Part shown: positions 33,827-53,155 of the stretch, one piece after another
Layout of the letters: each line of letters opens with the position of its first letter
Position numbering within the stretch: the stretch's first letter is position 1
NCBI GenBank assembly: GCA_048886685.1
Contig: JBHLKM010000002.1
Coordinates: 263,532 to 327,531 of the forward strand
Direction: 5' to 3'
Source of the DNA: Candidatus Hodarchaeota archaeon
Lineage (GTDB): Archaea; Asgardarchaeota; Lokiarchaeia; Sigyniarchaeales; SOKP01
DNA: 64,000 nt
Program-made: the position numbers and the translations under genes
The notes under the pieces: generated by a model
Told to the model about the DNA's origin: nothing
Database searches by the model: none
Seen by the model: only the letters and a program-made list of their open reading frames with translations

Positions 33827-34885
33827 TCACTCCTTAGCTTTTTTAGCTGATATAGTAAAAAAAAATGTTGATCCTTTACCAACAACAGATTCCACCCATA
33901 TATTTCCCCCATATCTTTGAACTATTTTTTTACATATGGGTAATCCTATTCCTGTACCGGGATATTCTTCTTTTGTATGTAATCGGTAAAAAATATTAAA
34001 TAAACGGTCAAAATATTTAGATTCAATACCTATACCGTTATCTTCTACCGAGAATAACCATTCTTCATTGATTCTTTTTACTCCTATATAAATTTTAGGT
34101 GACTCTTTTCTTCGAAATTTTATTGCATTACTGATAAGATTCTGAAACAATTGCATGAACTGAGTTTTATCTACTTTTAATGTTGGCATATTGTCATAAG
34201 ATATGATTGCCCCACTTTCCTTTATTGATTCTTGTAAATTAAATAATGCATCTTTTAAAATATTCTCAAGATTAGTTAATTTTGAGGGTTTGGCGTGTGT
34301 AGTGATCCTTGAATAAGCTAATAAATCCTTAATAAGAATATTCATTTTTTTTGCCCCATCTACGATAAATCGAATAAAATCTTTACCATCTTTATCTAAT
34401 TTATCTTGATATTTATCTTCTAGAAGTTGAGAAAAACTTACAATTGCTCGTAAAGGTTCTTGTAGATCATGGGATGCAACATATGCAAATTGCTGTAGAT
34501 CTTCGTTAGATCGTCTTAAATCCAACAAAATATCATTAAATTCAAGTTCTTTTTTTGATATTTGCTCAGATAGTAATGATACAACAGTCCCGATGATTAT
34601 TAATGAACTTCCTCTTAGAAAATTATTGATAGAATCAGGACTAAAGAAATCCATATATAGAATTAAATGTAAAATCACTAATACTGCTGCCAAAAAACCG
34701 GGGACTAATAAACCTTTTTTTTTCCACCATAAACATGATAATATCGAAGGAAAATAGAAAAAATGAGCCACTAGAATAGTAGTTCCCAGAATAACTTCGA
34801 AATAATAAATCAGTAAGCATGAAATTATAACTAAAATTAAAATTGTCAATATCTTTATTTTTTCTTCTTGATATTTCAATTTCAT
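33827..34885 (-). CDS. Membrane sensor histidine kinase
   Basis: N-terminal TM helices, FAYVASHDLQEPLR, NLISNAIKF, DNGIGI, GTGIGL, GKGSTFFF. Confidence 0.95.
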   Translation of the reverse strand: MKLKYQEEKIKILTILILVIISCLLIYYFEVILGTTILVAHFFYFPSILSCLWWKKKGLLVPGFLAAVLVILHLILYMDFFSPDSINNFLRGSSLIIIGTVVSLLSEQISKKELEFNDILLDLRRSNEDLQQFAYVASHDLQEPLRAIVSFSQLLEDKYQDKLDKDGKDFIRFIVDGAKKMNILIKDLLAYSRITTHAKPSKLTNLENILKDALFNLQESIKESGAIISYDNMPTLKVDKTQFMQLFQNLISNAIKFRRKESPKIYIGVKRINEEWLFSVEDNGIGIESKYFDRLFNIFYRLHTKEEYPGTGIGLPICKKIVQRYGGNIWVESVVGKGSTFFFTISAKKAKE

Positions 34886-35185
34886 TGTAATCCTTTCTCA
34901 CATATTATTATTTATTTATTATTTTGAATCTTTGACTAGAAAATATACATATTTTTAATAATCATTTGAAAGCAAAAGTGCCATTATATATTTAAATATC
35001 ATATAGATTATATTTAATTTTTAAGAATATTATCTTGTATAGACTATATCTCATCGAATGTAGATTGGAAAAGTTTTATAAAAATCCTATTATCTATCAA
35101 GAAGAAGATCCATCCACAGGGTTTAAAAAATTTTTAATTAAATTGATTTCATCTAAAATATTGATGAAATAATTATATATTAAAT

Positions 35186-35198
35186 TGAATATTATTCA
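35186..35198. promoter_or_regulatory. Operator TGAAT-ATT-ATTCA upstream of the REC-Lrp gene
   Basis: Identical to the 32740 site. Confidence 0.6.
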
Positions 35199-35278
35199 GC
35201 TTATAGATCAAATTGAGAATGGAATCTATTGTTATTACTAAGTTAAGTTAAATAGAAATACTATAATGGTGAGAAAAA

Positions 35279-36160
35279 ATAGAGAAAAAAAAAATTACTA
35301 TATTATTAATTGAAGATAATTCAGCTGATGTACGTCTAATTAAAGAATTTTTAAAAAAATCAATAGATTTAAGTTATGAAATAGAATCATATTCTCGACT
35401 TTCCGAAAGTCTAAATAATATTAAAACCAGAAATTATGATATAATCCTATTAGATTTGGCTCTCCCTGATAGCGACAGAGAATCTACTCTAGAGAAAGTT
35501 TTAAACGCCACGGCAGAAATTCCTATTGTCATTTTAACTGGATTAGATGATAAGGAATTTGCTTTAGAATCTCTTAAAAAAGGAGCACAAGACTATCTAA
35601 TAAAAAATGAGCTCAATGAGACCAATCTAAGTCGAGCAATCCTTTATAGCATTGAGAGACACAAAATTGAAGGTGAAAGAGTAAAAAACCGAGTTCAAAA
35701 AATACAATTTGACGAAAAAGATAAAGAAATACTTAATATATTGCAAGAAAATTATAGAATCTCTTACAAAGAATTAAGTAAAAAAGTGAATCTAGCGGCT
35801 AGTACAATCCATAACCGAGTGCAAAATATGTTAAAAGAGGGAATTATTCGTAAATTTGATACACTTATAGATCCTTTCAAAGCAGGATATGACTCAATTG
35901 CAATTCTTGGTCTTTCTGTTGACCCATTGAAATTAGAGGAGGCAGCTGAAAAATTAGCAAATTATGATGAAATTCAACTGGTAGCTACCTCAACAGGTGA
36001 CCATAATATGATCTTACGCGTTCTAGCACTAAATGAGAAAGATCTTTGGAGATTCATTAATGAAAAAATTAAAGTAATTGACGGTATTCAACCAACTATG
36101 GATGTATCAAGTTTTATTGATATTTTTAAAATGACTCATAAAATAAATTTTAAAATTTGA
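35279..36160 (+). CDS. Receiver domain fused to an Lrp/AsnC transcription regulator
   Basis: Frame open from 35273: LLIEDN...LLDLALPD, IVILTG, GAQDYLIK, then the Lrp HTH (DEKDKEILNILQENYRISYKELSKKVNLAASTIHNRV) and RAM domain (TGDHNMIL). No ATG/GTG/TTG precedes LLIEDN; ATA 35279 lies 6 nt after GGTGA. Confidence 0.88.
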   Translation: MEKKKITILLIEDNSADVRLIKEFLKKSIDLSYEIESYSRLSESLNNIKTRNYDIILLDLALPDSDRESTLEKVLNATAEIPIVILTGLDDKEFALESLKKGAQDYLIKNELNETNLSRAILYSIERHKIEGERVKNRVQKIQFDEKDKEILNILQENYRISYKELSKKVNLAASTIHNRVQNMLKEGIIRKFDTLIDPFKAGYDSIAILGLSVDPLKLEEAAEKLANYDEIQLVATSTGDHNMILRVLALNEKDLWRFINEKIKVIDGIQPTMDVSSFIDIFKMTHKINFKI

Positions 36161-36221
36161 AAGAATGAAATTCTTGATTAATTTATTCAAAATTATAGAA
36201 TTTAAAACTTGTTCATAAAAA

Positions 36222-36818
36222 TCAATCTGTTATGTCTATTAATGCCACAGTGAACTTATTGTCAATCTCTTTCAAATCTAGCTTGCATTCTACAGAGTTT
36301 AAAATATGATGCATTGGTTTATTATCAATATGAAGTGTTCCCCCTAATTTGGTATAATTCAAATCCCTAGCAATTTTTATAAGATTTTTTAAAAGAAATT
36401 TTGTTATTCCTAGACCACGCCAATTTTTGTGAGTCACAAATATTAGTTCTCCTACCTTAAGATTCATTTTTTTAAATAAACAACCCATTGCCACAATAGA
36501 GTTCTCTTCTTTTTCTATATATTCTGCAACTAATACCATATCTTTATTGTAATTTATATTCACCAGAGATTTTATCTCATTAATTCCAAGCTTTTTTTTA
36601 TATGAGAAAAATCTATAAAACCAATCTTTTTCATCCAAAGAAAGGTGTAATTCTTGAACCTTTTTTTCATCATCAGGTTTTACAGGTCTGATAAATATAT
36701 TCTTTCCATTTTTGAGATTTAAAAATAGGTGATAATTTGCTGGATATTGATTAGCAACTCTATCTGTAAGTTCAGTTCTGATTAAATTTGACATGTTATC
36801 ACCAATCAGGTAAATCAA
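36222..36818 (-). CDS. GNAT acetyltransferase (Pat-like)
   Basis: IFIRPVKPDD, WFYRFF, WRGLGI, NKPM; probable ATG start at 36794; overlaps or abuts the gdh stop. Confidence 0.82.
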   Translation of the reverse strand: MIYLIGDNMSNLIRTELTDRVANQYPANYHLFLNLKNGKNIFIRPVKPDDEKKVQELHLSLDEKDWFYRFFSYKKKLGINEIKSLVNINYNKDMVLVAEYIEKEENSIVAMGCLFKKMNLKVGELIFVTHKNWRGLGITKFLLKNLIKIARDLNYTKLGGTLHIDNKPMHHILNSVECKLDLKEIDNKFTVALIDITD

Positions 36819-38143
36819 GGGAATATCCCTCTAAATTCAATAGCTTTAGCTAACCTCGCGATTGCAATCATATATGCCGCAATACGTAATGAGACATTTT
36901 TTTTTTCTGATAAATTATAAACATCTTCGAAGGTTTGAACCATAATATTCTTTAATTCATGATTTATCCTCTCTATATCCCAAAAGTAACTATGTATGTC
37001 CTGAATATATTCAAAATATGAGACGCAAACACCTCCAGCATTAGCAAGAATATCTGGAACAACTATTACACCTCTCTCATTTAAAACTTCATCTGCTTCT
37101 GGAGTAGTTGGTCCATTAGCACCCTCTAATATAATTTTACAATTTATATTTCTAGCATTTAGGTAAGTTATTTGATTTTCTATCGCAGCGGGGATTAAAA
37201 TATCACATTCTATTTCAAGAAATTGTTCATTTGGAATGATTTTATGATTCTTTTTTTTAAAATCTTTTAAAAAGTTATTTTCGTTTCTCCACTTTAGTAA
37301 TTCCTTTACATTTAAGCCTTCCCCATTATATAATCCTCCCTTAATATCTGAAATTCCTATTATTTTGGCTCCTTTTTCATATAAAATCTCAGCGATAGTT
37401 CCCCCAACATTTCCAAATCCCTGTATAACAACTTTCAAGCTCTTTAAATCTAAATTTAATTTTTTGCATAATGCATCAAGAATAAAAAATAAACCTCTTC
37501 CTGTTGCTGATTCTCTCCCAACTGAACCACCAATTTCTATTGGTTTTCCTGTAACTACTCCAGGAATGGCTCTGCCTTTGTTCATCGAATATGTATCCAT
37601 AATCCACGCCATAATTTGGGCGTTTGTGTTTATATCTGGGGCGGGAATATCTATATCTGGTCCTATAAAATTTATGATTTCAGAAGTGTATCTCCTAGTC
37701 AATCTTTCTAATTCACTTCTTGATAATTTCTTAGGATCGACACATATTCCTCCTTTTGCCCCTCCGAGAGGCAAATTTAACAAGCTACATTTCCATGTCA
37801 TCCAAGTAGCCAATGCTTTTACCTCGTCTAGATTAACATTTGGATCAAATCTTATTCCTCCTTTTCCAGGACCCCGAACTGTTGAATGATGTACCCTGTA
37901 ACCTTCAAATATCTTGAGATCTCCGTTATCCATCATAATAGGGATTGAAACAATTAAACAACGCTCCAATTTTTTAAGATATTTCCTAATATTATTATCC
38001 AATTGCATCTTTTCAGCTACAATATCAATCTGTTTTTTTGCCATTTCAAAGGGATTTGCATCTTTTAATTCCTTTTTCTTTACTTGCCCAGAATCTTCAA
38101 TTTCGTCAATAGAAACTACAACTTTTTTATAAATCGAGTTCAC
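36815..38143 (-). CDS. gdhA: Glutamate dehydrogenase (Glu/Leu/Phe/Val DH family)
   Basis: GPGKGGIRF, GGAKGG, DIPAPD, QGFGNVG, EGANGP, PDILANAGGV. Confidence 0.95.
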   Translation of the reverse strand: MNSIYKKVVVSIDEIEDSGQVKKKELKDANPFEMAKKQIDIVAEKMQLDNNIRKYLKKLERCLIVSIPIMMDNGDLKIFEGYRVHHSTVRGPGKGGIRFDPNVNLDEVKALATWMTWKCSLLNLPLGGAKGGICVDPKKLSRSELERLTRRYTSEIINFIGPDIDIPAPDINTNAQIMAWIMDTYSMNKGRAIPGVVTGKPIEIGGSVGRESATGRGLFFILDALCKKLNLDLKSLKVVIQGFGNVGGTIAEILYEKGAKIIGISDIKGGLYNGEGLNVKELLKWRNENNFLKDFKKKNHKIIPNEQFLEIECDILIPAAIENQITYLNARNINCKIILEGANGPTTPEADEVLNERGVIVVPDILANAGGVCVSYFEYIQDIHSYFWDIERINHELKNIMVQTFEDVYNLSEKKNVSLRIAAYMIAIARLAKAIEFRGIFP

Positions 38144-39765: not shown

Positions 39766-40263
39766 ATGTCTAAGATTAAGTTTGAAGAAAATCAGATTAT
39801 AATTAGAAATTATAAAACCTCTGATTATCACGCTACATTAGAAATATTAAAACAACTTCATGATCTATATGATATCAAATTAAATGAAAATCAATGGAGA
39901 CAATCGTCTGGTCTTAGACAATTTAAACCAAATTTTAAAAGAATTACATTGATTGCTGAACTAAAATCTACTAATGAAATTATAGGTTTGGGAATGATTG
40001 AAGCTTCAAAAAATCCCTTAGGTCAATATATTGGATACTTGGATAATTGGGCAATTAAAAAAGAATTCATCGGAAAACAACTAGGTAGAATCTTGGCAGA
40101 TAAAGCAATTCAAATATTAAAATCATGGGGTTGTGAATCAATTAGAATCAATCTTGGCTATGGCGCTCCAGAAAAATTGCTTAAACTATTTGGACAAATT
40201 GGATTTAATCCTATTATAATTGTGTTGGAAAGAAGATTTATTAATGGAGGTAAAGAATGTTGA
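39766..40263 (+). CDS. GNAT acetyltransferase (paralogue of 14519..15007)
   Basis: Shares QWRxSSGLRQFKPN, GYLDNWA, AIQILxSWGCxSIRINL. Confidence 0.8.
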   Translation: MSKIKFEENQIIIRNYKTSDYHATLEILKQLHDLYDIKLNENQWRQSSGLRQFKPNFKRITLIAELKSTNEIIGLGMIEASKNPLGQYIGYLDNWAIKKEFIGKQLGRILADKAIQILKSWGCESIRINLGYGAPEKLLKLFGQIGFNPIIIVLERRFINGGKEC

Positions 40264-40460
40264 AAGTAAAAAATACGATATCAGCTGAAGTGTTTATGCC
40301 GCAATTATTATCAGAGGGTAAATATTTTTGGATTAAGGTGAGATTTTTGTACGGGTTTCATGATAAAATCATTGGAGCAATTGAGACAATTCCTGAAATA
40401 ACTAAATATAAAATAACTGAACAGAAATTAGAAGAATTAGAAAAAAGTAAAAATAAATAA
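40257..40460 (+). pseudogene. Fragment of a PAS/PAC sensor domain
   Basis: YFWIKVRFLY...IIGAIETIPEITKYKITEQKLEE resembles a PAC motif plus linker; no other domain. Confidence 0.5.
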
Positions 40461-40496
40461 GATATACTGAAAATTAATAAGAAATTAGTGATTTAA

Positions 40497-40781
40497 TTGG
40501 AAGAGATTGTTATTCGAATCTTGATAAAAGAAGATCCTGAAAATACTTGTGCAAAATGTTGTAAAACTATGCAAGCTGTTGAAAAAATGATGAACACAGT
40601 TAATATTTTCAAGGATAAAGTTGAAATTATATATCAGGATGTGACATCTAATGAGATTATTGAAGAATATGGAAACCTTGAACCACCTGTAATATTCATA
40701 AATGGAATATTGTTTACTACGGGACATGTTCCTATTATAAAAAAGCTTGGAAAAAAAATATTTGAAATGTTAAATGAATAA
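40497..40781 (+). CDS. Small thioredoxin-fold protein
   Basis: CAKC, YGNLEPPVIFING, GHVP. Confidence 0.75.
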   Translation: MEEIVIRILIKEDPENTCAKCCKTMQAVEKMMNTVNIFKDKVEIIYQDVTSNEIIEEYGNLEPPVIFINGILFTTGHVPIIKKLGKKIFEMLNE

Positions 40782-40896
40782 ATTAGTTTTAATATGAATT
40801 TAAAATTTGAAATGTCCATATCTCATCCAAATCTCTGATCGAGTTCGATCAATATGTCCACCCGTTATAAAAATTAATCATATAATATTATTTACT

Positions 40897-41040
40897 TTAA
40901 CCTTTTGTATAAGCTGTCTTTTCCTTAATTCCACACAGAGGTAATTCACAGAGATTTAATTTATTTTTTTGTCTTTTAAATTCCTTTTCCATTTCTTTTT
41001 CTAATTCTTCACTCGTTATATGTGTATTATAAATCTTCAT
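40897..41040 (-). CDS. Small hypothetical protein, 47 aa (below the track cut-off)
   Basis: MKIYNTHITSEELEKEMEKEFKRQKNKLNLCELPLCGIKEKTAYTKG*. Confidence 0.35.
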   Translation of the reverse strand: MKIYNTHITSEELEKEMEKEFKRQKNKLNLCELPLCGIKEKTAYTKG

Positions 41041-41179
41041 ATTATATCATCTCTTTATTTTCAGTTAAAAATCATATTTTACTATATTTTAATCGATTTT
41101 ATTAAGATCTTAAATTAACTTCATTTTTCGGTTTTAAAAAGTATGAAATTTTATTGTACTTCTCTTTTTTTTCTATGTT

Positions 41180-41395
41180 TTATTTTTGCATCCAGATCGA
41201 TATTGCGAAAGGATTTGAATTAATCTCCAAATTGTCTGAATTATGATTTAATTTATTTAATCTACCTTGTTTATCAATAAAAACACAGGGAGCTATTTCT
41301 ACTATTATTAGTTCTGGATTTACATTATAATTTCCATTATAATCTTCAAAGCATTTTTTATATTTTAATTTATTATTCATAATCTCTCTTTTCAT
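41180..41395 (-). CDS. Hypothetical protein, 71 aa
   Basis: ORF directly downstream of the FrhB fusion; no motif. Confidence 0.4.
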   Translation of the reverse strand: MKREIMNNKLKYKKCFEDYNGNYNVNPELIIVEIAPCVFIDKQGRLNKLNHNSDNLEINSNPFAISIWMQK

Positions 41396-41414
41396 TACTT
41401 ATTCAACCCTCTTT

Positions 41415-43286
41415 TCAAATAATATTTAATTCAATCGGTCTTGAGCTATCTCTTTTTATTCCTGCTAGCCTTTCTATTTTTAATTGAAGGGGTTTTTTAT
41501 CCAGGTGACTTTTAATTTCAATTAAACCATATTTGATAGCCCCATTAAAAATTTCTTCCCCTGTTTTCGTTCTTGTAATAACAGAAGACCATCCTACTTT
41601 GGAACCAATTGAACCAATTGAAAGATCTGCTAATTCAGCAGTAAAATCATCGCAATAATTACAGAAATCAGAACCATATAACTCACATTCCTCTAAAGGA
41701 ATTGAAAAGATTTCCCCAGATCGAAGAGTTATAACAAATTTTCCAACGTTTATGTCCATTTTAGTTATTTCGTCAATATTAGCACTGAATTTATTTCTAA
41801 AAAACTGAAGGATTTTCTTATAAGGAAAGGATTCTCTACAAAAAATCCCTATTTTATATTTTATATTGTTTAATAAAGGTATTTTTACTGGAAATAATTC
41901 ACCTTTAAAAATTGCTTTTATTTTACATGGTAGAGCAACTAGCGCTAGTTTTTCAAATTTTTTTGCTTTATCTAAAATTGATAAAATTGGAGCATGAACG
42001 TAGGTACTACCTGCTGCTTTATACAGGTCTTCTACTTTTTCTATTATGCTAACTTCAGGTTTCCAATATTTTTTTGAGTGTTTAATTGTTATTACTGCAT
42101 TTATTAAATTTTGGTTAAATAAATAATTGAGTAATGAAGTAACTACGCCTCCATCTTGTCCTACTTTTTTAATTGTATATTTTAATGTTCTTGCCGAAAA
42201 AATATTTTTATAATAACCTAATTCATTGGAATATTTTAAAGAAGTATCAGACTTTTTAATAAGCTTCTTTATTTTATCGATTGAAAAAGATTGTGGGCAT
42301 ACACTATAACATAGACCACAATTACAACATAAACCCTCATCCCTGTATAGATAATCTGTAGTAAGTTCAAGGCAATCTACTGGACATATTGATGTACATA
42401 AACCACAACGACAACAAACTTTATTATCCTGAACTATAGAAACTGATTTGAAATAATTCTTCCTATAACTTTCCTTAATTTCTTTAATTCTGTATTTATA
42501 ACAAAATTCTCTTAGTCCTATTGATTTATTATGATTTAATTTATATTCTGGAATTTCTTCAATGTATCCTTGTTCTTTTAAGTAAAAAATATCTCGAATG
42601 ATATTTTTTACTGAAAAATCAAAAAGATTTATTATTTCTTTTAATGTTAAGGGATTATATCTTTTTAATTCATCAAGTATATAATTCCTAGCAGTTTCAG
42701 CTTCAAAAATCGAATCTAATAAATATGTAAGATCACTTTCATTATATCTTCCTGATTTTAAAATATTTTCTTTTGCTTTGAATAATGATCTATATTGAAA
42801 ATTGTAAGAAGCCTTATATGATGAATATAGCAATTTTTTTATTGGAATCGTTTCAAAATCATAATTATAATTTGACGTTATATGTGTTTTTCGAATTCCT
42901 GAATTAACTGGATTAGGACCAGAATGAATTAATTTTCTTAAGAAATTTTTAAACGTTTCATCTAATTTAGTTTGATTGGTTCCATCAAATTTAAATAACT
43001 TTACTCTTTGATTACCTAAACCTCTTCTTCTTAAAATTCGATTTACTTCTTCTATCGGTTTATGAAATGAATTAAATTTTGAGATAAACTCATCTGTTAT
43101 TATTCTACCTTTAATTATAATAAATATACCGTCAAAACCAAGGTATATTGCCTTTAATAATTGTGTTATATCAAGTGTTCCTATATTCTCTAATTTACTA
43201 ATTTTAACAGAATCTAGTTCTTTAAATTTTTTGATTAATCTAAAATCTGATTCGTTATATTTATATCCAGGGCTCGAAAATATCAT
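41415..43286 (-). CDS. Fusion: Cys-less MvhD-like domain, winged HTH and FrhB/FdhB F420-binding domain
   Basis: LENIGTLDITQLLKAIYLGFDGI (MvhD fold without ligands); ILDELKRYNPLTLKEII...IIRDIFYLKEQGYI (wHTH); 2x[4Fe-4S], GQDGGVVTSLL, LPCK, GIFCRE, ADLSIGSIG. Confidence 0.8.
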   Translation of the reverse strand: MIFSSPGYKYNESDFRLIKKFKELDSVKISKLENIGTLDITQLLKAIYLGFDGIFIIIKGRIITDEFISKFNSFHKPIEEVNRILRRRGLGNQRVKLFKFDGTNQTKLDETFKNFLRKLIHSGPNPVNSGIRKTHITSNYNYDFETIPIKKLLYSSYKASYNFQYRSLFKAKENILKSGRYNESDLTYLLDSIFEAETARNYILDELKRYNPLTLKEIINLFDFSVKNIIRDIFYLKEQGYIEEIPEYKLNHNKSIGLREFCYKYRIKEIKESYRKNYFKSVSIVQDNKVCCRCGLCTSICPVDCLELTTDYLYRDEGLCCNCGLCYSVCPQSFSIDKIKKLIKKSDTSLKYSNELGYYKNIFSARTLKYTIKKVGQDGGVVTSLLNYLFNQNLINAVITIKHSKKYWKPEVSIIEKVEDLYKAAGSTYVHAPILSILDKAKKFEKLALVALPCKIKAIFKGELFPVKIPLLNNIKYKIGIFCRESFPYKKILQFFRNKFSANIDEITKMDINVGKFVITLRSGEIFSIPLEECELYGSDFCNYCDDFTAELADLSIGSIGSKVGWSSVITRTKTGEEIFNGAIKYGLIEIKSHLDKKPLQLKIERLAGIKRDSSRPIELNII

Positions 43287-43485
43287 TATTTTATATTCAA
43301 TAATAAATCACCAAATTTTTATGAATATATTTAATTTAAATAATTTTAATATTATATATCCAATAATTATATATGTAATTAGATCATTTATATGTTAGTA
43401 ATACTATAATGAATATAATAAAATCTATAAAACAATCATTAAAATTAATAGTAATATAAAAAATGAAACAAATTGATGTTAAAAA

Positions 43486-44922
43486 ATGATAACAAAAGAA
43501 CATATGATTGATTATTTACAATGCGATATTTCATCTTTTGGATTTCAAGACTTATATGATTTAGTTATAAGTAAGAAAAATTGCGTAAACTGTGGAGCTT
43601 GTCTCTCGATATGCCCTCGTATCGGTCTTAATGAAAATGAACCCATACTTATAGATTATGACCCACAATGTTCATTATGTTTCAAATATTGCCCAAGAAC
43701 ATTTTTTCCAAAAGAACTCTTTGAAAAAGAACTTTTTAATGAAAAAATCCAAAAAGATTTTCTTTTAGGTATTTTTCAAAAAATAACTGTTGCTAGAAGC
43801 ATTGATAATAATATTTTAAATAATGCTCAAAATGGTGGAGTCGTAACTGCATTACTTATTAATGCATTAAATTTAGGATTAATTGATGGAGTTATCATGG
43901 CTAATAAAGATGAAGATTGGCGCCCTAAACCCATCATAGCAAGAACTCCAGAAGAAGTAATTGATGCTGCGGGTTCAATCTATGCTATGATACCAACTTT
44001 AAGTATATATAAAAAAGCTGTGTACGATTATGAAATTGAAAATCTTGGATTTGTCGGCTTACCATGTCAAATTCAAGCAGTAAGAAAATTTCAATTGTGG
44101 CCACCTCTTTCAGACAAATATGGTAAATTTAAATTAATTATTGGATTATTTTGTTCATCTAATTATTCATATAACTCATTGTATAACATAATACACGATT
44201 TATTGGGAGTTTCTCCTAGGGAAATCAAAAAACTTGATGTTTCGCATGGGAAGTTTATTGTTTATTTGATTAATGGAACTGTTAAAAACATCTCAATAAA
44301 AGATACAAGTAAATTTCATTATTTAAGCTGTGAACATTGTAAAGATTATACTGCTGAATTTGCGGATATTTCCGTAGGGAGTGTAGGTGCCCTAAGTGAT
44401 AATTGGAATAGTGTTATTATTCGCTCTAACACAGGTCAAAAACTTTTTAATGATGCTTTAAAAAAAGGAAAAATAATTAATTCGAATAAATTAGATCTTA
44501 TCAAAATCAAGAAAGCTTCCAAAAAGAAGAAAACGCAAATAATGGAAATGAGCGACAAGATTTATTCTGCTCTTAAATTATTTAATATAACTAAACCTCA
44601 AGTAAAAGTATACACTACACTTTTATCCTTAAGAGAAGCTGATTTGTCTTTGTTGAGTGAAATTATGAAGTTAAAGCCCGAAATAGTGTATAATATACTT
44701 AAAATATTGGAGCAGAGAAAATGGATATCTAAAAATAAAAATTTTTACAGACCAATTAATCCTTCTCAAGTATTGAAAAATGAAATAAATCAATATTTAA
44801 GTAAATTCAAAAATCACGTCAATATAATTAAAAGAAAGATTTTAAAGGATTTAAATACAATTTTTATACAAAATAATCTAATGGATGTAGAAAATCTGGA
44901 CTTCATGGATATCATTTTCTAA
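43486..44922 (+). CDS. Fusion: FrhB/FdhB domain and C-terminal TrmB-type HTH
   Basis: CVNCGACLSICP, AQNGGVVTALL, GLPCQ, GLFC, ADISVGSVG; C-terminal ITKPQVKVYTTLL...IVYNILKILEQRKWI...YRPINP. Confidence 0.82.
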   Translation: MITKEHMIDYLQCDISSFGFQDLYDLVISKKNCVNCGACLSICPRIGLNENEPILIDYDPQCSLCFKYCPRTFFPKELFEKELFNEKIQKDFLLGIFQKITVARSIDNNILNNAQNGGVVTALLINALNLGLIDGVIMANKDEDWRPKPIIARTPEEVIDAAGSIYAMIPTLSIYKKAVYDYEIENLGFVGLPCQIQAVRKFQLWPPLSDKYGKFKLIIGLFCSSNYSYNSLYNIIHDLLGVSPREIKKLDVSHGKFIVYLINGTVKNISIKDTSKFHYLSCEHCKDYTAEFADISVGSVGALSDNWNSVIIRSNTGQKLFNDALKKGKIINSNKLDLIKIKKASKKKKTQIMEMSDKIYSALKLFNITKPQVKVYTTLLSLREADLSLLSEIMKLKPEIVYNILKILEQRKWISKNKNFYRPINPSQVLKNEINQYLSKFKNHVNIIKRKILKDLNTIFIQNNLMDVENLDFMDIIF

Positions 44923-45018
44923 AAATAAAAATATAATTTTATAACTCTACTTAATGTTGATGTAAACGATTAGTCTGAATTTTCTTTGGCCCGATTAATT
45001 AAAATTTAAAAAAAAAAT

Positions 45019-46704
45019 TTAAGTAGAGATTCTTATTTTATTTCCTAGCAAGATCTTCCTTGCTTGTTCAAAAGCATAATTATAATCAAAAACTTTTTTT
45101 CCTTTAGTATTCGATGCTTCTTTAAGGATCTCCGCCTCGATATTAGATTTTAAGCGTCCTAATGCTAATGCACCAATTCCGAAAATACTTGGGTATATTT
45201 CTTTGTAATCATCTTTTGGCTTTAAACCCTCAACACCATAAGGAGGGACAAGATTAATATCGATTATAAGCTTGTTTTGAAGTTTAATTAGTAAATCTTT
45301 TGATAAAATTTGTACAGCAGCAGCAGCTAGACTCCAAATTATATCCGCATCTTTTACTATTTCTAATTTCTTTTCATCATTTGGTGCGAAGACACCGATT
45401 ATTTCAGTATCGTTTACTCCAACTTCTTCATTTAATTCTTTTACTAGGTTTTTAATGAAATTTTCATTTGATTTTTCCCAAGTTTCAACCAAATAAGTTT
45501 TACATTTTAATTTCGTTGCTAATATTGCAGCAATTCTTCCAACAGGTCCTGCTCCAAAGATGACTATTTTTTTCCCTTTTAAATCAAACAAATCATTCTT
45601 TTTAGAAATTTCCATAGTTTTAGCGACTATTGAAGCGGCAGTAGTATGAGAACCACGAGGATCAATAATTACTGGGCATTCAAAAGGAGGTACCAACGAT
45701 TCTATTACTTTTTTAGCAATTTTTTCACCCTCTTTAACATTGGATCCACCAATAAAGAACGTGGTAGGAGCTTTCGGTTTTCTAGAAAAAATAGCATCTT
45801 GAACAAGTTTTGGGACTTGATCAGCAGTCATCCTACTAAAGGGGATGACAATATCAAAGCCAGCATCATAAGCCATATTTATATCGAAAGGAGAAGCATT
45901 ATTATCAGTATCAAAAAAATAACATATTTTTTCTAACGTTTCATTCTGTTTCACTTTAATTGGAGTTAATTCGATTATAGATTTACCAATGATAGTTTTA
46001 AATGAATTAGAACGAGGATTGTTTACAACTCTAGCTAACCGTTTGATTTTTATTTCTTCTGTTTCAATGCCTAATTCTTCTGCCAGTTGAGTGATCCCTT
46101 TGAAATGCCTAGGATCACAGAAAAAAAATGCTGTTAATTTTCCTCCTGCCATTTCCTTCGCAAATTTTAAAATGCCCATCATCATCCATGCTTCTCGAAC
46201 TTCGTATCTTATTTTATTCTCGTGAAGGTTGTATTCTTGTTGTAGGTATTCCCTCCATAAAAACATACGTTGAAACTCAAAATTATCTTTTGGAAATGTT
46301 TTTCCGTTAACCTTTATCATAGCTTTAATCGATTTTGTTAATTGTTTTATAAGTGTTCTAAGATCCTCCAAATTCGAGGAAAGATAATTTTCTGCGTTTT
46401 CTGAAATATCTACTATTTTATAAGGGATATGATTTTCTTCAAATAATGATTCTAGAGGATCATCAGGAGAAATTGTATCTTCCCAACGACTTCCTTTTTC
46501 TTCTAATGCGAAATCAGGATTGTATTTACCTATCAACTCTTTAATTAGATTGAGGTACTCTTTAGAAATCAAATGTAAATTCCATACTAAATCGTGCCTT
46601 TTCTGTGCTGATGTCTCAAACCACCAATCTATTGGAAATTCACTTTCAATCAATACTAATTTCAAACTCTTTCTCTTTAGAGGTTTTAACTCTAAAACTT
46701 CCAT
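45019..46704 (-). CDS. NAD(P)-dependent methylene-H4MPT dehydrogenase (MtdB/MtdA family) with about 255 aa of extra N-terminal domain
   Basis: DTDNNASPFDINMAYDAGFD, DAIFSR, DPRGSHTTAA, GAGPVG, DINLVPPYGVEG, GIGALALG. Confidence 0.85.
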   Translation of the reverse strand: MEVLELKPLKRKSLKLVLIESEFPIDWWFETSAQKRHDLVWNLHLISKEYLNLIKELIGKYNPDFALEEKGSRWEDTISPDDPLESLFEENHIPYKIVDISENAENYLSSNLEDLRTLIKQLTKSIKAMIKVNGKTFPKDNFEFQRMFLWREYLQQEYNLHENKIRYEVREAWMMMGILKFAKEMAGGKLTAFFFCDPRHFKGITQLAEELGIETEEIKIKRLARVVNNPRSNSFKTIIGKSIIELTPIKVKQNETLEKICYFFDTDNNASPFDINMAYDAGFDIVIPFSRMTADQVPKLVQDAIFSRKPKAPTTFFIGGSNVKEGEKIAKKVIESLVPPFECPVIIDPRGSHTTAASIVAKTMEISKKNDLFDLKGKKIVIFGAGPVGRIAAILATKLKCKTYLVETWEKSNENFIKNLVKELNEEVGVNDTEIIGVFAPNDEKKLEIVKDADIIWSLAAAAVQILSKDLLIKLQNKLIIDINLVPPYGVEGLKPKDDYKEIYPSIFGIGALALGRLKSNIEAEILKEASNTKGKKVFDYNYAFEQARKILLGNKIRIST

Positions 46705-47333
46705 TAATTACTCTCCCCCTGTTTTATAATTAAATATGGAATATTATGAATACTATAATAATCATAGACAATCGCCTCTATTTGAAGCTCTTTTAATTGT
46801 TTTATTATTTCTGGAAGAGTTATTTTATGAGCAAAATGAATAAGAAAAATTTTTTCATTTTGATAGGTCCTAACTATATCTAAGATTTTTTTAACAATCC
46901 ACTGTGGTCTTGTTTTCAATTCTAGAATATTTTTATCCTGAAAAACCTCCTTCTTTAGAACATCAATCCAAGATTTTAGATTTAATCCTTTAAAAGAATA
47001 TTTATCATCCATATTTCGATATTCCTGTAATAGTTCACTAATTTTTTCTTCATTTTTTGTTATTTCAGCATACAGACACCCATATGCATGCTCAGGCATA
47101 TCCAATAGGTAATATTCGATGTTAAAAGCATTTAAAATCCTTAATAGAGTTGAATTTTTAAAGGTTTTGAAATTTATCCCATTTATATCAACAGTAATAA
47201 ATTTAATGTTATTATTCTCTATTATTTCCTTTAAAATTTCAAGATCAGTAAGTTGAGAATCAAATCCTATATTTTCCAATAAATATATAACTATTTTTTT
47301 ATTGCTTATCGGTTTTAATTTTAATACTTCCAT
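46704..47333 (-). CDS. Hypothetical protein homologous to the N-terminal domain of the downstream Mtd fusion
   Basis: MEVLKLKP vs MEVLELKP; IEYYLLDMPEHA vs IPYKIVDISENA; RPQWIVKKIL vs REAWMMMGIL. Confidence 0.7.
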   Translation of the reverse strand: MEVLKLKPISNKKIVIYLLENIGFDSQLTDLEILKEIIENNNIKFITVDINGINFKTFKNSTLLRILNAFNIEYYLLDMPEHAYGCLYAEITKNEEKISELLQEYRNMDDKYSFKGLNLKSWIDVLKKEVFQDKNILELKTRPQWIVKKILDIVRTYQNEKIFLIHFAHKITLPEIIKQLKELQIEAIVYDYYSIHNIPYLIIKQGESN

Positions 47334-48096
47334 CTTAATTATCCACCTTTTTAAAATTATTCTTAAAATGTATACATGGAACTGTCATAACGTTATTAAA
47401 CGACCCCTTTCCGTATTTTTGAGCTATGAGATTAGTTCCAATTAGATAATAAGTTGATTAAAATTTAAATAGTTTGAAAAGAAAATTTTTCGTCATTTTG
47501 ACAAATTAAATTTTCAAAAAATTTCTTTAATAATTATTCTTTTCATATAAAAAATTGAAATTTAACCTCATTATAATAATCATACAATTTTAAAAGAGAT
47601 ATTTTAAAAATTGTTTTAGTCAAATTACTTATCAAAAAAATTTTAGTTACAGTTTAATACAATTTTTTGTTGATAGAGGTTAAAAGTTTTAGTAGAATTA
47701 CTAATGAAAGAGTATAGACAAATTTGTTAGATATTAATTAACAAATCTGTACAAATTTATAAATATTTTGTGCTTTTTAAAAATTTTGTTAAATAAAATC
47801 TATAAATTGAAAATAGAATTCTCCTTTTTGATCATTGACATACTCAATCTTACCTTTTATTCTTATTATTATAACTAAAATTCTCAATTATCTATAATAT
47901 CACTATTATAATTAAACAATAAAAATGAGGAAAAGCTCTATTAGATGCAAGGATTTTTAAATAAAAATTACCTCTTTCATAATGGGATTAGATCTTTTTA
48001 AAAAATATATTTTAAAAAAAACACAATATTGTCAAAATAATATATTTAATTCCTGAAAATATCAGGTTTTAAATTAAAAATGGGGGTGGTAAATAC

Positions 48097-48249
48097 ATGT
48101 TAATAGAAAAGATAGAAGAGAAAGAAATATGTAATAAGTGTAAGGCACCTTTAGAAGGTAATGACTATATATACAGACGTAAAGCATCTAATGTTATAAC
48201 ATATGTGTGTTCTAAATGTGGATATTTTGAGATTTATATCAAGGAGTAA
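48097..48249 (+). CDS. Small Zn-ribbon protein, 50 aa (below the track cut-off)
   Basis: MLIEKIEEKEICNKCKAPLEG...YVCSKCGYFEIYIKE*; GGTGGT SD; first gene of the operon. Confidence 0.75.
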   Translation: MLIEKIEEKEICNKCKAPLEGNDYIYRRKASNVITYVCSKCGYFEIYIKE

Positions 48250-48255
48250 AAGTCC

Positions 48256-49506
48256 ATGTCTTCTTACATTAATAATGAAATTAAGTGTAGCATTTGTAAA
48301 TATCAAAACTTAGGTGAAAATATTAAAAATGTAATTTCAATGGCAAATTATTGTTATGCTTGCAATAGATGTGTTAATGTGTGTCCACTTTCGCATTTAG
48401 ATGTATTTTTTCCGCGAACATTAGTAGGAGATTTAGTCCTCTCTTCATTCGGAGAAGTTTTAAATAATCATAATATCTGGGATTGTCTTACATGTGGTCA
48501 ATGTACAATATATTGTCCAATGAGTCAAGAGAATGTAGGAGTAAGAATACCCGAATTAATTTTGGAGTTGAGAAAGGCATCAAGAAATAATAAAATTCAA
48601 ATTAATAGAATACTTGAGAGCCAAACTCATAATGAAATCTTCCCGATAATTTCGAAAATGATGGCAAATAATCCAATAAATCCAAACAAATTAGAGTTTT
48701 TAAAGGAAAAAGGCCTAAAAACAACAGATTCAGGTGATATTGCGTATTTTGTTGGCTGCTTGCCTTTAATGGAAGAAATATTTTATAGCTTTAAAATTAA
48801 TTATAACAACATACCTATAACAATAATAAGTCTACTTAATGAAGCCAATATAGTACCAGTAGTTTTAAATGAAAAATGTTGCGGGCATGATATTTTATGG
48901 GGTGAGGGCGATATTGAAACTTTTAAAAAATTGGCCGAATATAATACTCAGCTTTACAAAGATGCTGAAGTAAAAACTGTTATAGTTGGATGTGCTGAAG
49001 GATATAGAACTTGGAAATATGATTATCCAAAAATAATAGATGGATTTGATTTCAAAGTTTTTCATTTTTCTGAATTTTTTCTAAAAGAGAAAATTCTTGA
49101 CCATTTAAAATTCCCTCGAAATCTCGAGACTAAGGTAACTTATCATGATTCTTGTCGAATGGGCCGTTTAGGCGGAAAATTATATGAAGCCCCAAGAGAA
49201 TTAATTAGACAAATTCCTGGAGTCGAATTAATTGAAATGGATAATATAAAAGATGATTCTAATTGTTGTGGCATCGCAACATTTCTAAATTGTAATGAAT
49301 ATACACGCGTTTTAAGGAAAAATCGTATCAATGAAGCAATTGATACCAGAGCAGAATATTTAATTGTCTCTTGTCCAAAATGTTTAACACATTTTAATTG
49401 TTATCTTAACGACCCTTCCTCAAATGAAGAGAAAAAAGGGTTAAGAAATAAAATAAAGGTGATCGACTTAGCAAGTTTGATTGGTAAATTGCTTCTGCTT
49501 GTTTAA
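48256..49506 (+). CDS. hdrD: HdrD-like Fe-S oxidoreductase (2x[4Fe-4S] plus two CCG domains)
   Basis: CYACNRCVNVCP, CLTCGQCTIYCP, YFVGC, EKCCG, YHDSC, NCCG, SCPKC. Confidence 0.85.
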   Translation: MSSYINNEIKCSICKYQNLGENIKNVISMANYCYACNRCVNVCPLSHLDVFFPRTLVGDLVLSSFGEVLNNHNIWDCLTCGQCTIYCPMSQENVGVRIPELILELRKASRNNKIQINRILESQTHNEIFPIISKMMANNPINPNKLEFLKEKGLKTTDSGDIAYFVGCLPLMEEIFYSFKINYNNIPITIISLLNEANIVPVVLNEKCCGHDILWGEGDIETFKKLAEYNTQLYKDAEVKTVIVGCAEGYRTWKYDYPKIIDGFDFKVFHFSEFFLKEKILDHLKFPRNLETKVTYHDSCRMGRLGGKLYEAPRELIRQIPGVELIEMDNIKDDSNCCGIATFLNCNEYTRVLRKNRINEAIDTRAEYLIVSCPKCLTHFNCYLNDPSSNEEKKGLRNKIKVIDLASLIGKLLLLV

Positions 49507-49562: not shown

Positions 49563-52500
49563 ATGTTAAAATTACAGAGTAGTGTTTTAGTTATAGGGGG
49601 TGGAATTGCTGGTATACAGACATCATTAGATCTCACTAGGTTAGGATTCAAAGTTTATCTAGTTGAAATTAAACCTACTATTGGTGGGACTATGGCTCAA
49701 TTAGATAAAATATTTCCTACGCTTGATTGCAGTTTGTGTATTTTAGCTCCCAAAATGGTTGATGTATATAGAAATCCAAATATCGAGTTATTTTCTTATT
49801 CTTACATCAAAAAAATTAGAGGATCTGCTGGAAATTACACAGTAACAGTTATAAAGAAGCCAAGGTACATAAAAGAAGAGATTTGTAAAGGATGTGGAGA
49901 TTGTGTGAATGTTTGTCCAATTAAAGGAATTCCTAGCGAATTTGATACCCATTTAAAAACTCGAGAAGGTATATATATTCCTTTTCCATCATCTGTACCT
50001 CCAGTATATCTTATTGATGACAGAAATTGTTTATTTTTAAATTATCAAATATGTGGAATTTGTGCTAAAGTTTGTAAAGCTAATGCTATAGATTTTTTAC
50101 AAAAATCAGAAGAAATAACTTTGAATGTAGGAGCTATTGTTATTGCCACAGGATATAGCCAAGAAATGCCAGAAAATTATAATACTTTTGCTGGTTATTC
50201 TCCCAATGTTTTGTCTAGTATGCAATTTGAACGTATATTATCCGCAAACGGACCTACTGGTGGTCAAATCATAAAATTAGATGATAGAAAACCTCCTCAT
50301 TCAATTGCTTTTATACAATGTGTAGGTTCTCGGGATGTTCATCATCCTGCATGTAAAAAATATTGCTCTGCAATATGTTGTATGAATTCAGCTAAAGAAG
50401 CAATTGTGGTTAAGGAACATGATCTAAATATTGAATGCTATATTATTAATACAGAAATAAGAGCAAAAGGTAAGAATTTTTATGAATTTATTGAAAGATG
50501 TAAGAGTGAATATAATGTTAAATATATTAATGGTCGTGTTTCATATATCAAAGAGGATTTAGATAATGGGAAATTAAAATTATACTATGAAGATATTGAC
50601 AAAGGAACAGTTGGAACTTTTAAAGTGGATATGGCAATATTAGCTAGTGCTTTATCCCCAACTCCTTCTTACTATAAACTTTTAAGACAATTTAACGTAG
50701 GTTGTAATGATTTAGGATATATTCGTGAAAAAGATATAATCTTACTTGAAAAAAAGAATGTATTTGTAACTGGTTATTCTAGAAAACCAAATGATATTCA
50801 AATGGCAGTTGCTGAAGGTTCTGCATGTGCTGCTAAAATTAGTGAAAAATTATGTTCTGTTAGATTTCAAAATATAAAAAAAATAAGTTATCCTTCAGAA
50901 ATACCACTAACACCCGAGGATGACCCACGTGTAGGTATTTTTATTTGTCGATGTGGTACTAATATTGGGGGAATTGTTAATGTTCCTGAAGTAGTAAATT
51001 ATGTTTCTAAATTGCCTTATGTTGTTCATGTTGAAGAAAATATGTATTCATGTAGCTCTGATTCCCAAGAACGAATTAAAGAATTAATTATAAAATATAA
51101 TCTTAATAAATTTATAGTTGCTTCATGTACTCCTCGAACTCATGAACAACTTTTTAAGAATACTTTAAGAGAGGCTGGATTAAATCCATTTTTATTTGAA
51201 TTAGTCAATATAAGAAATCAAGATTCTTGGGTTCATCAAAATGAACCTGAAAAGGCAACCAAAAAAGCATGTGATTTAATTAGGATGTATTTAGGAAAGG
51301 TAATTAATTCAAAACCATTAGAAACTATTAATGTTAAAGTTGAAAAATCATCTCTAATAATCGGTGGTGGAATAACAGGAATAACTGCTGCACATAATTT
51401 AGCAAACCAAGGATTTGAAGTTTATCTCGTAGAAAAGGATTCTTTACTTGGGGGTGTTGCACTCGAATTTATAGATTTATATTATATACCTATTACGAAA
51501 AATGAAATTTTACAAAAAATTAATGATTTGAGAAATAATTCTGATGTTCATATTATATTAAACTCAGATATAGTTGATATTCAAGGTTATGTTGGTAATT
51601 ATCAGATTAAAGTTAAGAATATTCAAGATAATTCAGAAGATAAAACATTTAAAGTGGGGACAATAATAGTAGCCACGGGAACCAGGCAAATAAGGACAAA
51701 TAGATGGTTAGATTTATCAGAAAGATATCCCAAACGTGTATTAACCCAAAAAGAATTAACTGCGATTAAAGATGCAGATATTCCTAGATTTAAAGATGCT
51801 ACAATAATACTATGTGTAGATCAAAGAAGAAACGAATTTAATGAAGGAGATAATATAAAAACCTATTGTTCAAATATTTGTTGTGGCGTAGCATTAAAGA
51901 ATATCGAAAAATTATTAAATAACAACCCTAATGCTCATATTCATGTTTTATATAGAGAATTTCAATTTTCAGATTTAAATGCTGAACACTTGTGGCGAAG
52001 CCTTCGACAAAAGGTTACATATGAAAAATATCGTTCAATCGATAATATCAAAATCATTGAGGAAAACGGTAGATTTCATATAAAATACAAAAACATTGGC
52101 GCTAGAACAGATATAGAATATAATACAGATTTAATAATATTAGCAACCCCAAAAGTCCCTGCTGATGGAACTGAACAATTAGCAAAATTGTTAAAAGTTC
52201 CAACAAATAAAGATGGCTTTTTTTTAGAAGCTGATGCAAAACTTAGGCCAATTGACTTTGCAACGGAAGGAATTTTCTTATGTGGGGGAGCTCATTGGCC
52301 AAAATGGATTGGTGAAAGCATTACTCAAGCATATGGTGCAGCTGGCAGAGCAACGATATTAATGGTTAAAGGAGAAATAGAAGCTGAATGTATAACAGCC
52401 GGAATCAATGAGGAAAAGTGCATTGGATGCGGTAGATGTGCCGAAATTTGCATTTATAATGCCATCGAATTGTATGACACTATTAAACAAATGGGTTTAT

Positions 52501-52673
52501 ACACTACTAATATAAAGAAAGCACGAGTAATTAAAGCTGTTTGTAAAGGTTGTGGAGCATGTGTTGTAGAATGTCCAGTTAATGCTATTGATCAAAATCA
52601 CTTTAGCAAGATTCAAATTAATAATATGATTGATTTATTACCAGGAATAGAATTACCGCATTATATTATTTAA
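49563..52673 (+). CDS. hdrA: Large two-module HdrA, all-Cys
   Basis: GGGIAG, FPTLDCSLCILAP, QCVGSR, CSAICC, CRCGTNIG, second GGGITG, C-terminal ferredoxin motifs. Confidence 0.95.
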   Translation: MLKLQSSVLVIGGGIAGIQTSLDLTRLGFKVYLVEIKPTIGGTMAQLDKIFPTLDCSLCILAPKMVDVYRNPNIELFSYSYIKKIRGSAGNYTVTVIKKPRYIKEEICKGCGDCVNVCPIKGIPSEFDTHLKTREGIYIPFPSSVPPVYLIDDRNCLFLNYQICGICAKVCKANAIDFLQKSEEITLNVGAIVIATGYSQEMPENYNTFAGYSPNVLSSMQFERILSANGPTGGQIIKLDDRKPPHSIAFIQCVGSRDVHHPACKKYCSAICCMNSAKEAIVVKEHDLNIECYIINTEIRAKGKNFYEFIERCKSEYNVKYINGRVSYIKEDLDNGKLKLYYEDIDKGTVGTFKVDMAILASALSPTPSYYKLLRQFNVGCNDLGYIREKDIILLEKKNVFVTGYSRKPNDIQMAVAEGSACAAKISEKLCSVRFQNIKKISYPSEIPLTPEDDPRVGIFICRCGTNIGGIVNVPEVVNYVSKLPYVVHVEENMYSCSSDSQERIKELIIKYNLNKFIVASCTPRTHEQLFKNTLREAGLNPFLFELVNIRNQDSWVHQNEPEKATKKACDLIRMYLGKVINSKPLETINVKVEKSSLIIGGGITGITAAHNLANQGFEVYLVEKDSLLGGVALEFIDLYYIPITKNEILQKINDLRNNSDVHIILNSDIVDIQGYVGNYQIKVKNIQDNSEDKTFKVGTIIVATGTRQIRTNRWLDLSERYPKRVLTQKELTAIKDADIPRFKDATIILCVDQRRNEFNEGDNIKTYCSNICCGVALKNIEKLLNNNPNAHIHVLYREFQFSDLNAEHLWRSLRQKVTYEKYRSIDNIKIIEENGRFHIKYKNIGARTDIEYNTDLIILATPKVPADGTEQLAKLLKVPTNKDGFFLEADAKLRPIDFATEGIFLCGGAHWPKWIGESITQAYGAAGRATILMVKGEIEAECITAGINEEKCIGCGRCAEICIYNAIELYDTIKQMGLYTTNIKKARVIKAVCKGCGACVVECPVNAIDQNHFSKIQINNMIDLLPGIELPHYII

Positions 52674-52690: not shown

Positions 52691-53155
52691 TTGTTAAAAA
52701 CTAAAAAAAAAATAGTTAAGGAATTTGAGCCAACTATTTTAGTTTTTTGTTGTAACTGGTGTAGTTATGCTGGAGCGGATTTAGCAGGAGTGTCAAGATT
52801 TCAATACCCCCCAAACATTAGGATTGTCAGAATTATGTGTTCAAGCAGAGTTGAGCCTATATTTATTTTAAGAGCTTTTGACAATGGAATAGATGGTGTA
52901 TTAATTATTGGATGTCATAAGGGTGATTGTCATTATATACATGGATTTGAATATACTCTAATCAGAATGGAACATTTAAAGAATTTATTAAAAATAATTG
53001 GAATTGAGGAAGGTAGATTTAGGTTACACTCAATTTCAGCAAGTGAGGGGAAACAATTTTCAGAATTAATTATAGAATTTACAGATAAAATTAAAGAGTT
53101 AGGGGAATTAAAAATCCCCAAAAAATTTGGACTAATGGAATTTAAATGTAATTAA
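52691..53155 (+). CDS. mvhD: MvhD, all-Cys form
   Basis: FCCNWCSYAGADLAG, IMCSSRV, GCHKGDCHY. Confidence 0.95.
   Translation: MLKTKKKIVKEFEPTILVFCCNWCSYAGADLAGVSRFQYPPNIRIVRIMCSSRVEPIFILRAFDNGIDGVLIIGCHKGDCHYIHGFEYTLIRMEHLKNLLKIIGIEEGRFRLHSISASEGKQFSELIIEFTDKIKELGELKIPKKFGLMEFKCN

Follow-up and report, generated by a model that had tools for sequence, protein, structure and literature searches.

Two divergent FrhB–winged-helix fusion genes in a Lokiarchaeial redox island and the possible roles of their winged helices

Two divergently transcribed genes, each joining an FrhB-type coenzyme F420 module to a winged helix, occupy positions 41415 to 44922 of a 64,000-nucleotide stretch of DNA (the window; contig JBHLKM010000002.1, positions 263,532 to 327,531 of the forward strand) from the Candidatus Hodarchaeota archaeon assembly GCA_048886685.1. 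The host genome has a GC content of 30.9%, and the closest protein matches come from Promethearchaeota or Lokiarchaeia. The open reading frames span exactly 41415 to 43286 for the left gene (P0001, minus strand) and 43486 to 44922 for the right gene (P0002, plus strand), and a common spacer of 199 bp with 11% GC lies between them (43287 to 43485). A third fusion, of a DUF7347 winged helix-turn-helix (wHTH) to HdrA and MvhD, is found at 58133 to 60682, and all three fall within 19.3 kb. The neighbourhood is a conserved Hdr/Mvh/Mtd island whose gene order is shuffled among loci; besides the HdrA of the third fusion, the window encodes HdrA proteins at 49563-52673 and 54414-56465 and an MvhD at 52691-53155. 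A preliminary description of this DNA, made from its letters, had recognised the AT-rich spacer of about 200 bp, the three helix-turn-helix (HTH) fusions to redox subunits within 20 kb, and the make-up of both genes (a ligand-less MvhD, a winged HTH and FrhB on the left; FrhB and a TrmB-type HTH on the right). All of this is borne out, with the addition of a ferredoxin domain that had been overlooked in each protein.

The left protein (623 amino acids) is composed of a cysteine-less MvhD-like domain, a winged helix, a 2x[4Fe-4S] ferredoxin domain and FrhB. The MvhD-like domain (residues 1-125; 42912 to 43286, minus strand) is identified by Pfam, by its fold and by alignment to a solved MvhD. 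Residues 8-119 match FlpD/MvhD (PF02662) at 27.2 bits against a cut-off of 22.3, the modelled N-terminus superposes on the MvhD 5odh_D (Z 10.1, root-mean-square deviation (rmsd) 2.8 Å, 120 residues), and the solved MvhD 9sfi_K aligns with the protein at E 1.7e-5. The Cys positions of 9sfi_K are taken by I, K/G and F, and residues 1-289 contain zero Cys; devoid of any [2Fe-2S] ligand, this part is therefore unable to relay electrons. The likeness is visible solely by profile, solved MvhD or fold: BLASTP against the window's own MvhD gives no recognisable match (E 35), and BamF is not among the matches for residues 1-285 in a sequence search of the PDB. The domain is followed by a helical segment and the winged helix (residues 149-268; 42483 to 42842, minus strand), in which DSSP analysis of the model identifies helix 3 as NIIRDIFYLKEQGYIEE and the wing as a long beta-hairpin. 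This fold is generic, many wHTH proteins matching it at Z about 6 in structure comparison, and residues 200-243 show a weak DeoR/ArsR-type HTH signal below the cut-offs (HTH_DeoR 18.7 against 21, HTH_11 14.3 against 25, HTH_5 14.2 against 22). The ferredoxin domain (residues 285-340; 42267 to 42434, minus strand; Pfam match at 287-340) carries eight Cys, and the FrhB N and C domains (residues 355-595; 41502 to 42224, minus strand) score 69.2 bits (E 3e-19) and 127.1 bits (E 7e-37), both above the gathering score of the FrhB/FdhB Pfam models (PF04422, PF04432). All eight ferredoxin Cys, the FrhB cluster residues C454, C483, C542 and C545, and D378/G379 are invariant in the left family, which also bears a QDGG motif. 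A possible near-cognate start codon, ATT (43301-43299), lies five codons upstream of the annotated start, with a GGTGA Shine-Dalgarno sequence (43312-43308) 6 nt ahead of it; in orthologues the corresponding codon is ATG or ATA, and their N-terminus reads M(E/D)YKIM.

The right protein (478 amino acids) is composed of a ferredoxin domain, FrhB, a TrmB-type wHTH and a coiled coil. The ferredoxin domain (residues 27-75; 43564 to 43710, plus strand; Pfam match at 27-70) has seven Cys and a near-invariant Asp59. The FrhB N and C domains (residues 94-335; 43765 to 44490, plus strand) score 86.6 bits (E 1e-24) and 141.3 bits (E 3e-41), again above the gathering score, and C194, C223, C282 and C285, Q115/G117/G118 and the ferredoxin Cys are invariant in the family. 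The wHTH (residues 357-426; 44554 to 44763, plus strand) matches TrmB (PF01978) over residues 363-426 at 29.3 bits against a cut-off of 25.6, with a recognition helix at 398-410 that includes Tyr402-Asn403. It continues into a long amphipathic helix of 43 residues (427-469; 44764 to 44892, plus strand), the equivalent of the TrmB alpha5 coiled coil, in which E433, N463 and N464 are invariant. The C-terminal 112 residues of the model (354-465) superpose on the TrmBL2 DNA-binding domain 5bqt_B, coiled-coil helix included, with Z 12.8 and an rmsd of 1.9 Å over 110 residues. In the second cluster motif of the ferredoxin domain, D-x2-C-x2-C-x3-C-P, Asp59 (43660-43662, plus strand) replaces the first Cys, whereas the left family keeps eight Cys; the substitution points to a [3Fe-4S] cluster or to a [4Fe-4S] cluster with Asp as a ligand.

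The presence of ferredoxin domains in both proteins places them in an FpoF/CODH-zeta-type architecture rather than that of a bare FrhB. AlphaFold models of the two proteins were built on 44-48 homologues (predicted local distance difference test 82-86, predicted template modelling score (pTM) 0.83-0.85). The whole-chain pTM values of 0.83 and 0.85, together with the aligned ranges, suggest that the extra domains are packed compactly. Both cores find their best match in 8riu_B, with Z 40.3 (left) and 40.0 (right) over 336-337 residues at 30-34% identity. This is the zeta subunit of the F420-reducing carbon monoxide dehydrogenase (CODH) from Ca. Ethanoperedens thermophilum, in which, as in the Fwd F420-reductase subunit of the same organism (8RJA chain E), a 2x[4Fe-4S] ferredoxin domain at the N-terminus precedes an FrhB-type domain with flavin adenine dinucleotide (FAD) as well as a [4Fe-4S] cluster (PMC11493965). 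The two structures match the window proteins at Z 40 and 33-35, respectively, with rmsd 2.4-3.1 Å and 30-34% identity. The zeta subunit is divided into a ferredoxin domain (1-83), an F420-reductase domain (84-349) and a C-terminal extension (350-370) that forms the homodimer interface (PMC11493965). The zeta and Fwd subunits, which are bound to CODH or Fwd, have neither a winged helix nor an MvhD part; compared with zeta, the window proteins carry a whole TrmB-type domain as the C-terminal piece (right), or a degenerate MvhD and a winged helix at the N-terminus (left). No gene for CODH/acetyl-CoA decarbonylase/synthase or Fwd occurs in the neighbourhood, where the neighbours are Hdr, Mvh and Mtd genes. 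Both proteins also have Pfam domains and cofactor motifs in common with FpoF/FqoF and FrhB, and the right one passes NCBIfam PRK09325 (275 bits against 269), but they stay below the equivalog cut-offs for FrhB (TIGR03289; 219.7 left and 261.5 right, against 331.5) and FpoF (NF040616; 162.2 and 157.2, against 475). No frhA/frhG or fpo genes lie near the pair.

The four FrhB cluster Cys and a Q(D/N)GG motif are invariant in both families, and the redox modules of the two genes appear cofactor-complete and alive as far as sequence can tell. F420 is plausibly made in the host, since the same genome encodes cofH (457 bits) and cofD (323 bits), both above curated NCBI cut-offs. Both FrhB modules plausibly bind and turn over F420.

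The right-gene family comprises 407 matches, of which the best 120 are all Asgard proteins of about 478 amino acids. The TrmB tail is limited to Asgard loci, the nearest non-Asgard relatives (ANME-1, Methanophagales) aligning to residues 19-350 only, and it is kept in more than 100 clusters among the matches listed. A second FrhB-TrmB fusion ("type 2") is encoded on another contig of the same genome. On the left side, the full form with the MvhD part is confined to a small clade, while a form of about 500 amino acids that lacks this part is widespread, with two copies in this genome. The two genes are linked and yet are not obligate partners: at four to five loci they diverge with about 200 bp between them, at two they converge and at two they stand in tandem, and in many right-gene loci the left gene is absent within 6 kb. 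Obligate pairing was rejected on the evidence of five right-gene genomes, one of them a complete chromosome, that lack a full-length left gene. As a rule, the right gene is monocistronic. Right-gene orthologues (L009, L012, L013, L016, L019) have as conserved neighbours a histidine kinase, a REC-Lrp regulator and glutamate dehydrogenase (window 33827-38143), of which the REC-Lrp protein is a further candidate for regulating the island. The genome holds 14 strong FrhB_C matches with varied fusions. Other FrhB fusions in it join the module to a GltD-like NAD(P) oxidoreductase (911 amino acids) or to an NAD-binding part of FNR-like type together with a DHODB Fe-S domain (605 amino acids; loci L002 and L006; C8:159466-160791 and C6:133508-133957).

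The synteny of the forms of about 500 amino acids, drawn from this genome and the examined loci, bears on the origin of the left gene. In two Borrarchaeum loci (L022:84-4123, L025:1562-5590), an HdrA gene interrupted by selenocysteine is followed by a Cys-bearing MvhD (109 amino acids) and then by a winged-helix–ferredoxin–FrhB protein of about 505 amino acids. The last two genes are 66 nt apart, and taken together they show colinearity with the left protein over its residues 10-616. Because of this colinearity, the left gene is apparently a fusion of mvhD and a winged-helix frhB gene that lost its cluster ligands later. The left-type winged helix is also present on FrhB genes embedded in hdr operons. 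One such gene is a paralogue in the same genome, whose helix 3 is nearly identical to that of the left protein and which lies in an operon of the order HdrA fragment, winged-helix FrhB, FrhB, HdrD and HdrA whose genes are spaced 8-24 nt apart. At 0.77, the conservation of left-type helix 3 (NvIRDIfYLKEQGYIEE) exceeds the 0.70 of the FrhB core. From these patterns, the left winged helix looks like a conserved docking surface. The earlier suggestion that the Cys-less MvhD may act as a docking module also fits the Borrarchaeum order hdrA, mvhD, winged-helix frhB, the docking itself being a prediction. The left N-terminus shares its fold with the MvhD subunit found in the MvhAGD-HdrABC complex (5ODC/5ODH chain D; 9SFI chain K), but it has no [2Fe-2S] Cys and is fused to a winged helix and FrhB.

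These findings led to the explanation that we favour, at even confidence: both proteins are F420-linked oxidoreductase modules whose winged helices serve dimerisation (right) or docking onto Hdr-type partners (left). F420(H2) would bind at the FAD, and electrons would pass through one [4Fe-4S] cluster to the 2x[4Fe-4S] ferredoxin domain and on to a partner, either ferredoxin or an Hdr-type flavoprotein. The winged helices would be protein–protein hardware, not gene switches. On the right, the TrmB-derived wHTH and coiled coil start where zeta has its short homodimerisation extension, and they would pair two copies of the enzyme. On the left, the winged helix would be an adaptor between the degenerate MvhD and the ferredoxin domain, and by way of the MvhD remnant and the winged helix the F420 module would dock onto HdrA-type partners whose genes lie in the same redox island. 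The left gene would derive from the adjacent mvhD and winged-helix frhB genes of an hdrA-mvhD-frhB operon, the [2Fe-2S] ligands having been lost afterwards, and a single conserved TATA-like element midway along the spacer would drive the co-expression of both genes. What the analysis shows directly is how the domains fold, that the cofactor ligands and the promoter element are conserved, that the left gene is colinear with split genes, and how conservation is distributed.

The alternative proposed in the preliminary description is that the proteins are one-component regulators that read the F420 or flavin state. On this view, at least the right protein would be a redox-sensing "trigger enzyme" that binds DNA as a coiled-coil dimer via its TrmB domain, which we regard as possible but doubtful. 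DNA binding might then vary with F420 occupancy or with how reduced the FAD and the Fe-S clusters are; the left protein might behave alike, or its MvhD remnant might keep it on HdrA. In PutA and Rex, an enzyme or cofactor-binding module is joined to a DNA-binding fold. Among archaea, a precedent for an enzyme–wHTH regulator is RbkR, a kinase/regulator (PMC5397151). The window proteins resemble PutA, Rex and RbkR in combining an enzyme or cofactor module with a DNA-binding fold, but the sensor parts are non-homologous and DNA binding by the window proteins is putative. The retention of the sensor cofactors and the presence of F420 synthesis genes speak for regulation, as do the usually monocistronic state of the right gene, a conserved element common to both promoters, and the TrmB domain itself, with its Pfam score above cut-off and its match to TrmBL2 extending through alpha5.

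The recognition helix bears on whether the TrmB tail reads DNA. In the TrmB family (TrmB, TrmBL1, TrmBL2, MreA), a wHTH is followed by an amphipathic dimerisation helix, as in the right tail; Tyr50 on the recognition helix is key for DNA recognition, and the next helix forms the dimerising coiled coil (PMC4158304). The right protein differs from this family in that its wHTH lies C-terminal, not N-terminal, to the "sensor", in that it has no sugar-binding domain, and in that the P-R-S/T-K/R stretch of TrmB is replaced by P-E-I-V or E-E-E. At the Tyr50 position, Tyr402-Asn403 is kept in the window protein and in orthologues of at least 67% identity; the equivalent has gone already at 60-66% identity, and N, F, S, R, G or I stands there elsewhere in the family. 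Nowhere is the right protein less conserved than on the exposed face of the recognition helix, whose positions have majority frequencies of 0.19-0.5 and are E-rich in most members; conservation of the helix is 0.52, against 0.72 for FrhB. What is invariant in the tail (Y376, L408, R411, W413, E433, N463 and N464) belongs to the fold core or, for E433 and N463/N464, to the long helix. Net charge on the wHTH averages +1.6 among members of the right-gene family and -0.8 among those of the left-gene family, against +7 for the window's right protein and +4 to +7 among its closest orthologues. Judged by the proxies of charge and helix-face conservation, DNA binding by the right TrmB domain is putative. 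The preliminary description had named the lack of conserved basic or recognition residues as the finding that would speak against its proposal; such residues are largely lacking across the family and are present in this clade, where Tyr402-Asn403 and a charge of +7 occur together.

The spacer provides a second line of evidence. It contains a conserved 13-nt element with a TATA-like core, GATCATTTATATG (43382 to 43394), about 100 nt from both start codons. Whatever the gene arrangement, this element is found 99-104 nt upstream of the right gene, and the left gene has its reverse complement about 100 nt upstream even at loci that separate the two; in divergent loci, a single central copy serves both. 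The strictly conserved part is (C/A)ATTTATATG, which is TATA-like, whereas the GATC part varies (GACC, GATA, GAAC). The sharpest comparison is among orthologues: the recognition helix changes from KPEIVYNILKILEQR to DQQEINNALNILEKR in orthologues with the same element, and at 54-56% identity the element is letter-identical while only 5 of 15 helix residues are shared with the window's protein. Since the helix diverges while the element stays fixed, the helix does not read that element, which we read as a core promoter common to, or inherited by, both genes, and not as an operator. As an exact 13-mer the element is present in a single copy in the genome, and a regulon was rejected: with at most one mismatch, the 13-mer CATATAAATGATC has 29 genome matches, against 24 +/- 12 for permuted cores. 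The shorter GATCATTTAT occurs 41 times in the genome, about the composition expectation. The 41 inverted repeats in the spacer are uninformative at 11% GC, and inspection by eye for the Lrp-type palindrome TGAAY-N4-RTTCA found only a half-site-like TGAATA.

On the left side, too, the regulator reading meets difficulties, with a left-type winged helix embedded in hdr operons and an acidic helix 3 in Borrarchaeum, and right-gene genomes often have no left gene. What stands of the earlier proposal are the domain assignments, the cofactor-complete FrhB modules, cofH/cofD in the genome and the fit of a docking MvhD relic with Borrarchaeum; what concerns DNA is weakened by the unconserved helix face, the element that the helix does not read, the absence of a regulon and the hdr-operon setting of the left-type winged helix. 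Regulation survives mainly for the window's own clade, and there as a tentative proposition. More tentative still is a fuller version for this Lokiarchaeial clade, in which the right protein would be an F420/ferredoxin redox sensor, a dimeric TrmB-type trigger enzyme that uses Tyr402-Asn403 and its +7 wHTH and whose affinity for DNA tracks how far its FAD and Fe-S chain are reduced, the left protein would be anchored on HdrA, or set free from it, via its cluster-less MvhD, and both would couple transcription of the Hdr/Mvh/tetrahydromethanopterin island to the F420H2/F420 ratio.

Several points weigh against the oxidoreductase-module explanation. A complete TrmB-type domain superposes on the TrmBL2 DNA-binding domain within 1.9 Å; for dimerisation, a bare coiled coil would suffice; this clade keeps Tyr402-Asn403 at the key recognition position with a wHTH net charge of +7; and left helix 3 has conserved N, R, Y, K and Q residues that might read DNA. 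Moreover, the joining of a winged helix to a redox protein three times independently inside 20 kb has the look of a theme. Within the favoured explanation, we infer that the right protein dimerises, that the left one docks, which partners exchange electrons with them, and that DNA is not bound; interface, partner and dimer are all predictions.

Two further readings fare worse. The winged helices could bind nucleic acid non-specifically, as TrmBL2-like chromatin proteins or on RNA, and so place the enzyme on the nucleoid or on transcripts, which we consider improbable: the tail's best structural match, TrmBL2, is indeed a chromatin protein and the window's right protein is charged at +7, but a wHTH net charge of about 0 in most family members is poor for such binding, and an Rfam search of 40000-48500 and five paralogue loci found no relevant RNA family. 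Least probable of all is that the tails are functionless relics of a former regulator fusion, a view that would account for the drifting recognition-helix surface but is opposed by fold-core residues and a QNN end of the long helix that are invariant across 48 sequences at about 50% identity, by the breadth of tail retention noted above (more than 100 clusters among the matches listed), and by a left helix 3 more conserved than the enzyme core.

Models of Asgard syntrophy hinge on electron flow among F420, ferredoxin, Hdr-type bifurcating flavoproteins and hydrogenase, and FrhB paralogues are many in Asgard archaea. If docking and pairing are true, the winged helices would mark which F420 modules plug into which complexes, and the left gene would record a fusion of mvhD and frhB followed by cluster loss. 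If at least one of the proteins binds DNA, it would be an F420-responsive regulator. To our knowledge, no F420-responsive transcription factor is known, and the right protein would be the first; a literature search found neither an FrhB-wHTH fusion nor an F420-responsive regulator described.

A region at window 56334-56905, upstream of the FrhB/wHTH-HdrA/Mvh operon, contains the motifs GGATCTGATCC, TGATCCTTGATCA, GGATCACATTTATATA and AGATCATTTAT, the last in common with the promoter element of the pair. It is the third most GATC-rich of 2094 intergenic regions, with 7 sites against 1.2 expected. A "GATC box" regulon was considered and rejected: the two richer regions are a TetR/ABC pair and the spacer between two short unannotated open reading frames, and another top-ranked region is found at an Lrp/glutamine-synthetase pair. 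Because GATC-rich regions occur at such other places, the enrichment is not specific to the island. The most GATC-rich spacer of the genome, the divergent TetR/ABC-transporter promoter at C8:2391-2567 (L116), carries three copies of GATCATTGATC, probably a TetR operator array.

The leader of the right gene contains a 16-codon, Ile-rich mini-ORF, MNIIKSIKQSLKLIVI (43409-43459, plus strand), and comparable mini-ORFs (e.g., MTKSLKSLLKIIIT, MVFSIKSSLNPIII) are present in most type-1 orthologues, ending about 26 nt before the main ATG. These could be chance occurrences in AT-rich DNA or leader peptides; if 43386-43393 is the TATA box, the mini-ORF would start near the 5′ end of the transcript. The type-2 paralogue (L004:2120-2349, contig C21) and 15 related loci share a conserved upstream block of about 170 nt, although the proteins are 46-65% identical. 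This block, which has no Rfam match, includes a conserved hydrophobic mini-ORF (..VRVLISLSIIILVVLII, then stop) and, after the stop, a 14-bp stem (AAGCGAAnCAA..CCG / CGG..TTGTTCGCTT), with a T-run and a TATA-like box enclosed between its arms. In a proposed three-helix structure that includes the stem, 91% of cells are paired, with 9 compensatory pairs against 4.0 +/- 1.3 in shuffles, and the block is possibly a leader-peptide attenuator.

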